In this document: positions 34,054-38,220 of the stretch, piece after piece
How the letters are laid out: every line of letters begins with the position of its first letter
How positions within the stretch are numbered: the first letter of the stretch is position 1
Assembly (NCBI GenBank): GCA_944381135.1
Contig: CALWJY010000001.1
Coordinates: forward strand, 4,378-68,377
Length of the DNA stretch: 64,000 nucleotides
Reading direction: 5' to 3'
Origin: an uncultured Clostridia bacterium
GTDB lineage: Bacteria > Bacillota > Clostridia > Christensenellales > UBA1242
Translations under genes and position numbers: made by a program
Notes under the pieces: generated by a model
Database searches by the model: none
The model's input: only the letters and a program-made list of their open reading frames with translations
Told to the model about the DNA's origin: nothing

Positions 34054-35184
34054 ATGATTGTTGTTTACATTTTGCTTGCCATAGTCATTCTGCTTTTCAT
34101 GGTGCTTATCCATGAATTTGGACACTATGTTGCAGGCAAAATTTTGAAGTTTAAAATCACAGAATTTTCTGTTGGTTTTGGCTTTCCAATCTTCACGCGA
34201 ACGAGCAAGAAAACGGGCGAAAAATTTTCGCTCAGAATTTTTCCATTGGGTGGATATTGCTCTTTTGAAGGCGAGGACGACGAGGGAGAATCTTCTTCTC
34301 CAACAGCATTCAACAATCAAAAGCCTTGGAAAAGAATCATTGTGTTTTTGGCGGGCGTGACAGCAAACTTTTTGACAGCCATAATTTTTTCTTGGATTTT
34401 GCTTTGCACAATTGGATATGATGTTCCGCAAATTGCGCGTTTCAATCAAGTCTACACAAATCCATATCAAGTTGGAGATGTCATCACTCACATTGAGGGA
34501 CAAAAAATTGATTTTGCATTTGGCGGAAATTTTGTTGACCTTGTCACAAGTGAAAAACAGACGGCTTTGGCGCAGTATAGAGAGCAGTATGAGGCAAATG
34601 GCAACAGTCTTGAGGGCGTTGAGGCTTCCTATACATTTGAAATGACTGTCAAGCGTGACGGAGAACTTCAAAATTTGACAATCACAATCTATCCTGTTGT
34701 TGAAGTCAACAGCACGAATGGTGAAGAATATGTAAATGTCTATACAGGGCTTGAAAGCGCGGAGGGTGAAGACCCTTGCACAGTTGCATATGTCTATGAC
34801 GCATGGTCGGGCTTTTGTCGTTCGTTTGAAATGGCATTTGGCTTTGCTTGGGTGGTTCTGAAGAGCCTTTGGATGCTCATTACATTTCAAATTCCAATCA
34901 CGGAAATGGGCGGAACAATTGCCACAATTTCCACAATTGCAACCATGGCGTCACAAAGCATGTCCTACATTTTGGTTTTCATCCCGCTGATTGCGGCGAA
35001 TTTGGCGGTGTTTAATGTCTTGCCGTTTCCGGCGCTGGACGGCTCGCATGTGCTTTTCACAATCATAGAGTGGATTCGAGGCAAGCCAATTAATCGAAAA
35101 GTTGAGAGCATGATTCACTTTGTCGGGCTTTGCATTTTGTTTGGTTTTGTGATTATTGTGGACATATTGCATTTTGTCCTATGA
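34054..35184 (+). CDS. rseP: RIP metalloprotease RseP/RasP (M50)
   Basis: HEFGH, EFSVGFG, PLGGYC, NVLPFPALDG; position after cdsA. Confidence 0.93.
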   Translation: MIVVYILLAIVILLFMVLIHEFGHYVAGKILKFKITEFSVGFGFPIFTRTSKKTGEKFSLRIFPLGGYCSFEGEDDEGESSSPTAFNNQKPWKRIIVFLAGVTANFLTAIIFSWILLCTIGYDVPQIARFNQVYTNPYQVGDVITHIEGQKIDFAFGGNFVDLVTSEKQTALAQYREQYEANGNSLEGVEASYTFEMTVKRDGELQNLTITIYPVVEVNSTNGEEYVNVYTGLESAEGEDPCTVAYVYDAWSGFCRSFEMAFGFAWVVLKSLWMLITFQIPITEMGGTIATISTIATMASQSMSYILVFIPLIAANLAVFNVLPFPALDGSHVLFTIIEWIRGKPINRKVESMIHFVGLCILFGFVIIVDILHFVL

Positions 35185-35205
35185 TTTTTGAATGATGATA
35201 TGAAT

Positions 35206-35236
35206 AAGGAACGGCGAAATGACCGTTCTTTTTTTA
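35206..35236 (+). terminator. intrinsic terminator
   Basis: AAGGAACGG...CCGTTCTT followed by a T-run. Confidence 0.65.
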
Positions 35237-35367
35237 ATAAAACTTTTTTATGTAAATTTTCAAAGTTTACAAGAGAGGATGATGTCGTGTCAAGTTTGTT
35301 TTTGGTTTGCTTTCTTTTCTGAGAAGTGATTGTTGTTCTGTGCATTTAAAATTAATTTCATATGTGC

Positions 35368-35396
35368 TTGACAAATTTTCAAGTTTGACATAAAAT
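35368..35396 (+). promoter_or_regulatory. SigA-type promoter, 6 nt upstream of ATG 35403
   Basis: TTGACA-17-TAAAAT. Confidence 0.75.
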
Positions 35397-35402
35397 TGTT
35401 GT

Positions 35403-36935
35403 ATGAATTTCCAGCAAGAGTTTGCCACAAAGTTTGGCGAAAAATATCCAACACTTCAACTTAAAAGCGTTGCGGTCAAGAAAAGCACAGGGGCGTTTTT
35501 CATCACTTTTTTATATCCATCCACCGACACAGAACTTTCTGATGAGCAAAAAAGCGAAATCACGCAGTGGATTTGCCAATTTTTGAAACTTGAAAATCTG
35601 CAAGTCAGAGTCAAGTTTATGCGTGTTTTTGTGGAAGAAAGGCTGATTATGAAGTCGGTTTTGTCTTTCTTTGAAAACAAATATAAATTGATTTCAACCT
35701 ATCTTTCTGAGAAAAGTTTTCAAATCAAAATCACACCAATTGATGTTCAGATTGGAGTTGAGGTGAGTTCGAGACTTTTTAATTTCTTCGTGGAGCACAA
35801 CATTTCGGCAGAACTTTCAAAACATCTTAAAGACAACTTTTTGGTGGATTTTGTTGTGGAACTTCATGAAAATGCCAACTTGGTTGATGAAGTGGACATC
35901 GACAATGTCCAAATGAAAACGAAATATAAAATTGTTCACAGATATAAAGTTGACATCGTGAAAGAGATTGTAGGCAAAGACATCAATCCGACACCAGAAT
36001 TTATTTCTTTCATTAAACAGCCAAAAAATTCGGTTATCGTTGCAGGCTTTGTTGACAAACTTGAACGTCGAGATTTCATCATCAAAAAAGGCAAACGCGA
36101 AGGTCAACAGAAAGCATATTTCAGTTTCAAAATTGATGACGGAAAAGGCAAAATGGACTGCATTTTCTTCTGTGCAAAAAAATATGAAAAAGTGATGGAC
36201 TCTTTGGAAGACTGCATGTTTTTGCTTTTGCGCGGGGATGTCAGACTGAACCAAATGGGCAAACTTTGCCTTTATGTTGATAAAATTGCTTTGGCAAGTC
36301 GAACGGAAGAGCCTCAAGAAATCATAAAACCACAGAAGAGTTATGATGGAAAAGTGGTTGAGGTTGAAAAACTGACCGCCATGGAACAAGACAGCATGTT
36401 TGAGCACAAAAACAAATATAACGCCAAAATTATGGGTAAAACAATTGTGGTGTTTGACATTGAAACGACAGGGCTTGACACAAATTCCGACCAAATCATC
36501 GAACTTGGTGCTGTGAAATTGGAAAATGGAAACATTGTCGAAAAATTTTCCACTTTTGTCAAACCAACAATACGAATTCCGTTTGCTGTTGTTGAACTGA
36601 CAGGAATCACGAATGAAATGGTGGAAGATGCACCACCAATTGAATTTGTCATCAAAGATTTCTATGACTTCACGCGCGGATGTGTTTTGTGTGGACATAA
36701 TGCAATTGAATTTGACATCAAATTCATCAGGCGCGAGGGGGCAAATTTGGGACTTAATTTTGACAATGAAATCATTGACACCATGAATGAGGCTCGTGTT
36801 TCAAGGCTTAAAATTTCGCGTTTCAATTTGGCAACAGTTTTGCGAGCTTTGGGGTTGACAAACGAAGGGGCTCACCGTGCGTGGAACGATGCTTACGCAA
36901 CTGCTCAGGTGCTTTTGAAACTAAACGAAGCTTGA
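35403..36935 (+). CDS. PolC-derived 3'-5' exonuclease (N-terminal domain + OB fold + DEDDh; no PHP or polymerase domain)
   Basis: ExoI FDIETTG, ExoII HNAIEFD, ExoIII HRAWND; OB-like segment VIVAGFVDKLERR..FSFKIDD..LLRGDV; lies between rseP and rimP, the usual polC position. Confidence 0.8.
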   Translation: MNFQQEFATKFGEKYPTLQLKSVAVKKSTGAFFITFLYPSTDTELSDEQKSEITQWICQFLKLENLQVRVKFMRVFVEERLIMKSVLSFFENKYKLISTYLSEKSFQIKITPIDVQIGVEVSSRLFNFFVEHNISAELSKHLKDNFLVDFVVELHENANLVDEVDIDNVQMKTKYKIVHRYKVDIVKEIVGKDINPTPEFISFIKQPKNSVIVAGFVDKLERRDFIIKKGKREGQQKAYFSFKIDDGKGKMDCIFFCAKKYEKVMDSLEDCMFLLLRGDVRLNQMGKLCLYVDKIALASRTEEPQEIIKPQKSYDGKVVEVEKLTAMEQDSMFEHKNKYNAKIMGKTIVVFDIETTGLDTNSDQIIELGAVKLENGNIVEKFSTFVKPTIRIPFAVVELTGITNEMVEDAPPIEFVIKDFYDFTRGCVLCGHNAIEFDIKFIRREGANLGLNFDNEIIDTMNEARVSRLKISRFNLATVLRALGLTNEGAHRAWNDAYATAQVLLKLNEA

Positions 36936-37414
36936 CTCGAAAACTGCGCTGTTTGCTCATTTTTGGCATTTCATGCCAAAAAGCATCGCTCTGACGCTTG
37001 TTTTCGAGTCATCGCGCCAGACGAAAATCTCACTGACGTTGCGATTTTGCGCGACTCTCTTGCGAAGAATGAGATTCTAAGAGAGATGGTGTTTTTTTAG
37101 AAAGTAGCACTGCCACAAAACCGCGCTGTTTGCTTATTTTTGCCATTTCATGCCAAAAAGTTTCGCCCTGACGCTTGTTTTCGGTGGCATTGCCACAATT
37201 TAAAGAATGCAAATTAAAAGGGGTTCAAAAAAATTCTTAAATTTTTGGGAAAAGGAATGACCAAGCATTTTCCGAGTGCTTGCGAAAAGCAAGCCGAGTT
37301 TGAGCGCGGGTCATAACGCGGTCGCGACTCTCCTATCGAAGTGGGAGATTCTAAGAAAAAGATGTGTGTTTTAAAAAGTGGCACTGCCACCATCACTCTG
37401 AGCAAAGCCCGTTG
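36933..37414. repeat. structured dispersed repeat, copies 2 and 3, plus an internal direct repeat
   Basis: Hairpins at 36933-37011, 37012-37054 and 37111-37189; 37050-37116 recurs at 37323-37390. Confidence 0.8.
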
Positions 37415-37430
37415 TTTTGAACTTATATTT

Positions 37431-37562
37431 GTCACCCTGAGCGAAGTCGAAGGGTCTCATGGTGATTAAAAAGGAAAGAGATTCTTCGACACAGCCTGTC
37501 GGCTGGCTCAGAATGACGAAGAAAATTGCCGAATGTCATTCTGACCGAAGTGGAAGAATCTC
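37431..37562. repeat. cluster of REP-like repeats including an inverted pair (REPIN-like)
   Basis: 37431-37458 direct; 37478-37517 inverted (GAGATTCTTC...TCAGAATGAC); 37535-37562 direct (GTCATTCTGA...GAAGAATCTC). Confidence 0.8.
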
Positions 37563-37761
37563 GGACTACACTTAAGGTGGCGGTGGAGCACTAATTTTTA
37601 AAAAAAACACAAAATTGTTATAATAAAATTTTTAATTTTTTGAAAAAATCCTTGCTTTTTATGATTTTTTGGGTTATAATGTTTATATCTTGACATTGGA
37701 GGGGGCATTTTTGCCTCCTCCTTGTGTTAAAAAGACATTTTTGCAAAAAATTGGAGGAAAA

Positions 37762-38220
37762 ATGGCAAAGATTAAACAAATTTGTGAAGAAAAACTTAAG
37801 AGCGTGGTTGAGGAAATGGGCTATGAACTTGTGGACGTGGACTATGTCAAAGAGGGCAGTGGAATGAGCCTTATTTTCACCATAGACAAAGATGGTGGCG
37901 TGAATGTTGACGATTGCGAACTTGTCAGCAAACAACTTGACCCAATTCTTGATGAAATCAACCCAACGGAAGACAAACCTTATACACTTGTGGTTTCATC
38001 TCCGGGTCTTGACAGACCACTTAAGACGGACAGAGATTTGAAACGCAATTTGGGCGAAGAAGTTGAAGTGACTCTCTTTGCAAAACTTGACGGAAAGAAA
38101 AAGTTTGTTGGAGTTTTGGAAAGTTTTGACGAGAAGAATATCACTTTGAAAATGGAAAAAGAAAGCAAGACATTTGAGAGAGAAAAAATTGGCTCAATCA
38201 AACTTGTCATCAAATTTTAA
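37762..38220 (+). CDS. rimP: ribosome maturation factor RimP
   Basis: DKDGGVNVDDCELVS, LVVSSPGLDRPL; GGAGG RBS at ATG 37762. Confidence 0.96.
   Translation: MAKIKQICEEKLKSVVEEMGYELVDVDYVKEGSGMSLIFTIDKDGGVNVDDCELVSKQLDPILDEINPTEDKPYTLVVSSPGLDRPLKTDRDLKRNLGEEVEVTLFAKLDGKKKFVGVLESFDEKNITLKMEKESKTFEREKIGSIKLVIKF

Follow-up and report, generated by a model that had tools for sequence, protein, structure and literature searches.

The available part of a survey of complete genomes distinguishes three combinations of bacterial replicative polymerases (DnaE1 only, PolC with DnaE1 and PolC with DnaE3) and places Clostridia in the PolC with DnaE1 group (PMC12926913). An earlier study, in the portion at hand, reports a single DnaE1 only in some Clostridia, and treats the division of labour in the clostridial PolC with DnaE1 system as a question that has been open since 2014 (Timinskas et al., 2014; PMC3919608). 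According to the same portion, sequence fragments lacking a polymerase active site were excluded (PMC3919608). Hence, a PolC remnant would go unreported there. The N-terminal region of PolC is described, in the accessible parts of two papers, as two KH-like subdomains related to domain V of tau (PMC3919608, PMC12926913). The N-terminal domain of PolC is unresolved in cryo-EM structures, going by the available section of PMC12592400. Nucleases without their polymerase have been noted in other families. These are stand-alone FEN nucleases, found in the absence of Pol I, and PolX-like proteins that lack the polymerase region (PMC12926913, available part). The protein described below is similar in that the nuclease part outlives the polymerase, but it belongs to another family and has another type of nuclease. 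In our full-text literature search, which covered its sources in part, a polymerase-less PolC was not described.

We analysed a 64,000-nucleotide stretch of DNA from an uncultured Clostridia bacterium, referred to as the window. The gene order in the window is uppS, cdsA, rseP, an intact open reading frame of 510 codons, rimP, nusA, an ylxR-like gene, an L7Ae-like gene and infB. With rseP upstream, and rimP-nusA-infB downstream, the ORF occupies the position of polC. It is a positional orthologue of polC and a PolC remnant minus the polymerase, conserved and not in decay. The features of the locus are listed in Table 1. The intact frame, promoter and synteny all agree with a preliminary description of this DNA, which had placed a 510-residue ORF with its own near-consensus promoter at the polC locus.

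Table 1. Features of the polymerase-less polC locus, in coordinates of the window.
Feature	Position	Strand	Basis or remark
Terminator-like hairpin with T-run, 3' of rseP	35206..35231	+	Sets ORF apart from upstream gene
Sigma-70-type promoter, TTGACA-17 nt-TAAAAT	35368..35396	+	Consensus score 11/12
Whole ORF, polymerase-less PolC orthologue	35403..36935	+	510 aa plus TGA
NI subdomain, residues 1-98, KH-like alpha/beta fold	35403..35696	+	AlphaFold2, PolC N-terminus homology
NII subdomain, residues 100-156, second KH-like fold	35700..35870	+	AlphaFold2, VIA-align
OB fold, residues 180-300, PolC OB homologue	35940..36302	+	PF01336, hhalign 98%, Foldseek
Disordered linker, residues 301-345, replaces N-terminal PHP segment of PolC	36303..36437	+	pLDDT, hhalign
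QDSMF, clamp-binding-type motif, residues 329-333	36387..36401	+	Conservation, regex
DEDDh 3'-5' exonuclease, residues 346-510	36438..36932	+	Pfam RNase_T 3.4e-34; 2p1j 8.2e-31
Repeat-rich intergenic spacer, without polC remnant	36936..37668	.	733 nt, before rimP

The promoter is the top-scoring promoter-like site within positions 35150-37750. Its −35 box (35368-35373) begins at the base that the preliminary description had given as its start; the −10 box lies at 35391-35396. The ATG of the ORF sits 6 nt past the −10 box and no Shine-Dalgarno sequence is visible. Hence, the transcript is probably leaderless. The same layout (TTGACA, 17 nt, TAnAAT or TATTAT, 6 nt, ATG) was found at 12 of 13 further loci compared within the genus (L009-L029). 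At the thirteenth (L022) the start was wrongly chosen by our script, leaving the layout unreadable. This conserved arrangement implies a putative leaderless mRNA in the genus as a whole. Outside the genus, the gene comes after an upstream gene in other families, and some of these loci have Shine-Dalgarno-like sequences.

Searches of the 510-residue protein with Pfam returned an OB fold (residues 215-295) and an RNase_T/DEDDh domain (residues 349-504) and nothing else; neither PHP (PF02811) nor a polymerase domain (PF07733, fingers, HhH) was found. The top NCBIfam model is PolC (NF001688), matched at model positions 408-585 only and with 168.3 bits against a cut-off of 873. Similarly, the score with TIGR01405, also a PolC model, was 144.6 against a cut-off of 1043. 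The dnaq-family domain model TIGR00573 was passed (103 bits versus 71.5). The epsilon equivalog models NF004316 (83.7 versus 196) and TIGR01406 (74.6 versus 222.7) were not. The closest solved relatives are the exonuclease domain of T. maritima PolC (2p1j, 8.2e-31) and E. faecium PolC.

An AlphaFold2 model of the whole protein, made from a 28-sequence alignment, has a mean pLDDT of 86.5 and a pTM of 0.46. It contains two alpha/beta subdomains (NI and NII), a disordered stretch at residues 165-177, an OB barrel, a low-confidence linker and the exonuclease. Within the linker, pLDDT falls below 50 at residues 304-313 and 327-334. The top Foldseek match is E. faecium PolC (9qpc_A; 400 columns spanning the OB fold and exonuclease, E 8.8e-20), and epsilon-fold structures (2ido, 1j53, 5fkv_D) were also returned. 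Thus, Pfam and AlphaFold2 bear out the domain order first read from the letters, which was an N-terminal domain, an OB-like domain, a linker of ~45 residues and a DEDDh exonuclease ending after ExoIII.

When modelled alone, the N-terminal 165 residues gave a pLDDT of 91.7. Compared using VIA-align, NI resembles KH-type domains (Z 6-7) and NII resembles the Era-type KH domain (Z up to 9.4). The KH domain of S3, DnaA domain I and the DciA domain are among the fold matches of the N-terminal part, with Z values of 6.7-7.2; all of these Z values, including that for Era, are middling. The fold searches with this model listed KH-like domains; tau domain V and any PolC N-terminal structure were absent from the list, which does not count against the published link to tau. 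The KH-like matches of NI and NII agree with the published description of the PolC N-terminus.

The relationship to PolC was also evident in profile comparisons. An HMM built exclusively from short forms gave matches to 17 of the 18 N-terminal PolC fragments fetched, with the matches falling into two main pieces. The longest frame at the remaining locus (L179), which gave no match, is probably not polC. For nine of the 17, HMM positions 7-31 to ~295-339 aligned with PolC residues ~30-330 (E down to 5.8e-20); in the remaining eight the match (E <1e-6) was confined to the later part, and mostly to the OB fold. HMM positions 345-510 aligned with the PolC exonuclease, and ~75-85 extra PolC residues lay between the two pieces. 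Using hhalign, the short form and full PolC were matched with a probability of 86.6% (E 4.5e-6) in the N-terminal region and 98% (E 1.5e-13) in the OB fold, the regions being aligned separately but cut by way of a joint alignment. The N-terminal part is the region of lowest conservation, with 10-20% identity between families. By these profile matches the N-terminus of the short form is that of PolC, and not an unrelated sequence.

The two forms differ between the OB fold and the exonuclease. Here, full PolCs have ~100 residues with PHP motifs (RVELHLHT..., TDHG...), whereas short forms have ~50 unrelated residues. We found no homology between the short-form linker and the N-terminal PHP segment (hhalign probability 0.2%). 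The same value led us to reject the linker as a degenerate PHP motif I, in which VVEVEKLT...QDSMF would correspond to RVELHLHT..MS.MD. At its other end, the ORF stops 14 residues past the ExoIII aspartate D496 and has no C-terminal tail. PHP is therefore gone on either side of the exonuclease, as had been proposed. In sum of likeness, the short form has NI-NII, the OB fold and the DEDDh exonuclease in the same order as PolC (NF001688 / TIGR01405), and shares its locus upstream of rimP-nusA-infB. Unlike PolC, it is without PHP on both sides of the exonuclease, without palm, thumb, fingers and HhH, and without the C-terminal clamp motif; a linker with a clamp-type motif is found where the N-terminal PHP segment stood.

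No polymerase ORF follows the exonuclease, again as initially reported. The spacer downstream consists of genome-dispersed repeats, with 53 blastn matches (including the self-match) on at least nine contigs. It contains direct repeats of 67 nt and 54 nt as well as units able to form hairpins. The appearance is that of a dispersed family of small intergenic repeats. The alignment to the PolC model extends past the stop, and read-through of the TGA was considered. This was ruled out because relatives stop at the same place, with TAA or TGA, and because the sequence 3' of the stop is a dispersed repeat.

The host genome (G000) is a 16-contig draft of 1.19 Mb with 98.5% completeness. No match to the PolC model exceeded the cut-off, and there was a single match to PF07733. 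The latter, a DnaE of 1205 residues, scores above cut-off with both NF005298 and NF004226, and its domains are PHP, core, fingers, HhH and a C-terminal OB fold. Hence, the genome search asked for in the preliminary description returned no PolC-type polymerase and one DnaE1. When five full PolCs from the same order were compared with the genome by tblastn (E <1e-3), only the exonuclease and weak DnaE homology were recovered, with nothing 3' of the ORF. The ORF is the sole DEDDh exonuclease found in this genome, in which MutS is present.

We examined how widely the short form occurs. Within the genus, a homologue was found in 24/24 other sampled genomes (34-63% identity). All but one of these homologues (23/24) are in open frames of 511-536 residues, and the other is cut at a contig end (G012, 73% complete). 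The order was sampled with 151 genomes. Full PolC above cut-off was found in 74, and in two more (G149, G171) PolC is split into pieces at the ends of contigs. The short form, defined as a match from N-terminus to exonuclease in frames of 363-561 residues, was found in 72 genomes from 17 families; three of the frames are cut by contig ends (G108, G128, G104). Three genomes (G049, G113, G062) had no short form at E <=1e-45. The short and full sets do not overlap, either by genome or by family, and none of the 72 short-form genomes has a PolC-type polymerase above cut-off. Short-form genomes thus seem to rely on DnaE alone for replication. In most families the short form is directly 5' of rimP, with rseP ~1 kb further upstream. 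Full polC adjoins rimP, within the fetched stretch, at two of five full-PolC loci (L101, L102).

The frames remain intact down to ~24% identity. Since the architecture is an intact frame in 72 of the 151 genomes of the order, its recurrence is beyond chance. This bears on the idea of a decaying pseudogene, an assembly artefact or a split polC with its polymerase half elsewhere, for which the draft state of the genome, in 16 contigs, could be cited. The intact frames across 17 families, the invariant catalytic residues described below, the conserved promoter, the lack of any PolC-type polymerase above cut-off in the 72 genomes, and the tblastn result in the host genome all argue against it. We consider this explanation extremely improbable. 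Equally, the host genome holds no full polC elsewhere that would leave the ORF as an unconserved extra.

A maximum likelihood tree was built from 57 rows, using the shared N-terminal, OB and exonuclease columns, with linker columns removed. The short (35) and full (22) forms are split by one branch with SH-aLRT 99, though the alignment of the rows to the short-form HMM may favour such a split. The one-branch split is compatible with a single origin of the short form. Among 301 genomes sampled across the class, the short form (E <=1e-75) occurs only in 11 genomes, all of this order, and in 0/288 genomes of other orders. A search of 1.84 billion representative sequences with an NI-NII profile gave 351 proteins at E <=1e-10. 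Among the best 150 of the 351, none is longer than 577 residues, and 102 are 488-577 residues long. One homologue with 59% identity (Candidatus Caccovivens sp.) is annotated as 'PolC-type DNA polymerase III', and others as 'ribonuclease H-like domain-containing protein'.

The exonuclease site has D352 and E354 (36456-36464), D438 (36714-36716), and H491 and D496 (36873-36890). All five residues are invariant in 28/28 orthologues, and DEDHD is intact in 99 of the 102 wider representatives. Hence, catalysis is under selection in most lineages.

The QDSMF motif sits in the linker, ~22 residues ahead of ExoI. Q329 is conserved in at least 90% of 28 orthologues, which are as little as 23% identical to the window protein. 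A match to Q-x-x-[LMFIV]-[FL] occurs within the 40 residues ahead of ExoI in 26/28 orthologues, always ~22 residues upstream. Outside this region the same expression matched nine times in 13,536 residues; the linker is thus enriched ~35-fold. The expression also matched 101/101 close homologues and 83/102 wider representatives, and about half of the 19 that were missed lack the Q and show an x-x-L-F or L-L variant. The motif noticed at first sight is therefore conserved, and kept at a fixed place.

Motifs of this type are found elsewhere in the lineage. At the extreme C-terminus of the order's full PolCs we found QISLF, QVCLF, QLSFF, QLSLF and QMGLF (5/5 examined), and DnaE1 of the host genome has QISFF at residue 945. 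Thus, the same class of motif marks known clamp sites in this lineage. Given a C-terminal motif in full PolCs and a linker motif in the short form, the motif was relocated; the ancestral clamp site was lost with the polymerase and a putative new one lies in the linker. From its conservation and placement, we infer that the linker motif binds the clamp.

These observations suggest the following explanation. A single ancestral event would have removed both PHP halves, the polymerase core in its entirety and the C-terminal clamp motif. This would have left the two KH-like domains NI and NII, the OB fold and a DEDDh exonuclease that looks active, with a clamp-binding-type motif newly placed in the disordered linker between the last two. 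DnaE1, as the only C-family polymerase of the host, would carry out replication. The protein would ride on the beta clamp by means of the linker motif and remove mis-inserted 3' nucleotides of DnaE1 in trans, with NI-NII and the OB fold probably giving further replisome or single-stranded DNA contacts. Overall, we regard a clamp-tethered, trans-acting 3'-5' editor for DnaE1, to which NI-NII and the OB fold add contacts, as the probable role of this protein; trans-proofreading and the partners of NI-NII are the inferred parts. There is a precedent in B. subtilis, where the DnaQ domain of PolC complements DnaE3 in trans, according to the available part of PMC12926913.

Most likely, the protein is a functional analogue of E. 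coli epsilon (DnaQ) made of PolC parts. Like epsilon, it is a separate DEDDh protein with an epsilon fold beside a DnaE1-type polymerase, and has a clamp-type motif, here predicted from sequence, adjacent to the exonuclease domain. The clamp motif of E. coli epsilon is QTSMAF. Unlike epsilon, in which the motif comes after the exonuclease, the short form has it ahead of the domain. The short form also lacks the C-terminal alpha-binding tail, has 345 extra N-terminal residues (NI-NII and the OB fold) and arose independently, out of PolC.

The PHP domain of DnaE1 must also be considered. In the host genome and in five of the f26 and f42 genomes considered below, DnaE1 keeps all nine PHP metal-site residues, judged by eye from a comparison with the signature given in the accessible part of PMC12926913. 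DnaE1 may therefore proofread for itself, and the short-form exonuclease is a second candidate proofreader. In family f26, DnaE1 (L183-L185) has a PHP insertion of ~35-50 residues between TDHGNMY and GCEFY.

In two families, f26 and f42, the exonuclease site is dead. All DEDDh positions are replaced or missing in 7/7 orthologues examined (L153-L159, from genomes G066, G098, G172, G125, G163, G085 and G139; those of f42 belong to genera g43 and g75). The frames, of 485-547 residues, are nevertheless intact and retain a Q-x-x-F-like motif in the linker. A further f42 orthologue (G150) retains the active site, and the tree places it as the sister of the f42 forms with dead sites (SH-aLRT 98). Hence, the site died at least twice. 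Since the frames were kept, exonuclease activity is not what retains the protein in these lineages. The protein is retained for more than catalysis, which points to a structural role.

One could go further and regard the protein as mainly a structural replisome subunit with a dispensable exonuclease, its NI-NII, OB fold and clamp motif forming a bridge between replisome components (the clamp, DnaE1, tau or the helicase). Consistent with this are the two dead-site lineages with their intact frames and linker motif, the resemblance of the KH-like NI and NII to DnaA domain I and the DciA domain, the intact PHP signature of DnaE1, and a tie between NI-NII and tau domain V in the literature (cited in the available part of PMC12926913). 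Conversely, DEDDh is invariant in 28/28 and 99/102 sequences, NI-NII is without any known partner, and the N-terminal part is the least conserved, at 10-20% identity between families. On balance, a mainly structural protein is unlikely. A broader proposal is that the PolC remnant is a probably essential new replisome subunit, with a clamp motif re-invented in the linker and with KH-like N-domains and OB fold that organise a DnaE1-only fork, needed even where the exonuclease is dead. We put this forward tentatively, as a possibility that we doubt more than we believe.

A different role, away from the fork, would be that of a clamp-recruited repair exonuclease in mismatch-repair excision, or in the trimming of 3' ends or flaps. 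The protein is the sole DEDDh exonuclease of a 1.19-Mb genome that retains MutS, an OB fold with an exonuclease would suit single-stranded 3' ends, and clamp motifs are common among repair factors. But the protein is derived from a replicase, has kept the polC locus and the PolC N-terminal domains, and is retained in lineages with a dead exonuclease. Such a repair enzyme is thus quite improbable, and the clamp-tethered editor for DnaE1 is the reading that we prefer.

Two unusual exonuclease arrangements were also seen. A full-length PolC of family f4 (L180, genome G027) has a degenerate exonuclease site, with SRSTE at the DEDHD columns; the exonuclease profile had no match at E <=1e-45 in 6/6 sampled genomes of this family. 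In family f26, a 450-residue frame away from the polC locus (L117, genome G049) has an N-terminal DEDDh domain and is a different exonuclease fusion.

We know of no function for the PolC N-terminal domain, and the short form provides a handle on it. In 17 families the PolC polymerase is missing, and never its N-terminal half; this is a natural experiment on how labour is divided between PolC and DnaE1. The short form would also represent a second, independent origin of a putative stand-alone clamp-associated DEDDh proofreader beside DnaE1, convergent with proteobacterial epsilon. If the protein were an essential replisome subunit, then DnaE1 can be the true replicase in bacteria of the PolC with DnaE1 type, and the N-terminal half of PolC would have an independent and so far unrecognised function. 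By extension, PolC-targeting antibiotics (e.g. ibezapolstat) would be without their target polymerase in these gut Clostridia, a point of relevance to the way these drugs spare or reshape the microbiome.

Some minor observations concern neighbouring sequences and other replication genes. A GC-rich hairpin with a T-rich tail (window 37698-37721) is immediately 5' of the rimP start, and could serve the rimP-nusA-infB operon as a leader or attenuator. An Rfam scan of 35100-37800 gave no match for this hairpin and nothing credible overall, the sole match being to a fungal U3 model (E 0.49).

In the host genome, outside the window, dnaX (contig C15, L187 1148-2586, minus strand) is a 367-residue gamma-like frame with a stop (AAC TGA) right after nine A. 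This short frame could be taken to mean that the genus is without tau. We rejected this because a putative C-terminal domain was found in the −1 frame behind the A9 tract, where a 125-residue frame continues dnaX and, by eye, resembles the tau C-terminal domain. Across the order, short DnaX frames do not track with the short PolC form. The A9 tract, stop and −1-frame continuation are present in 4/4 other genomes of the genus examined. The arrangement looks like a programmed slippage site, giving gamma by default and tau by slippage; Thermus dnaX has a comparable A9 site.
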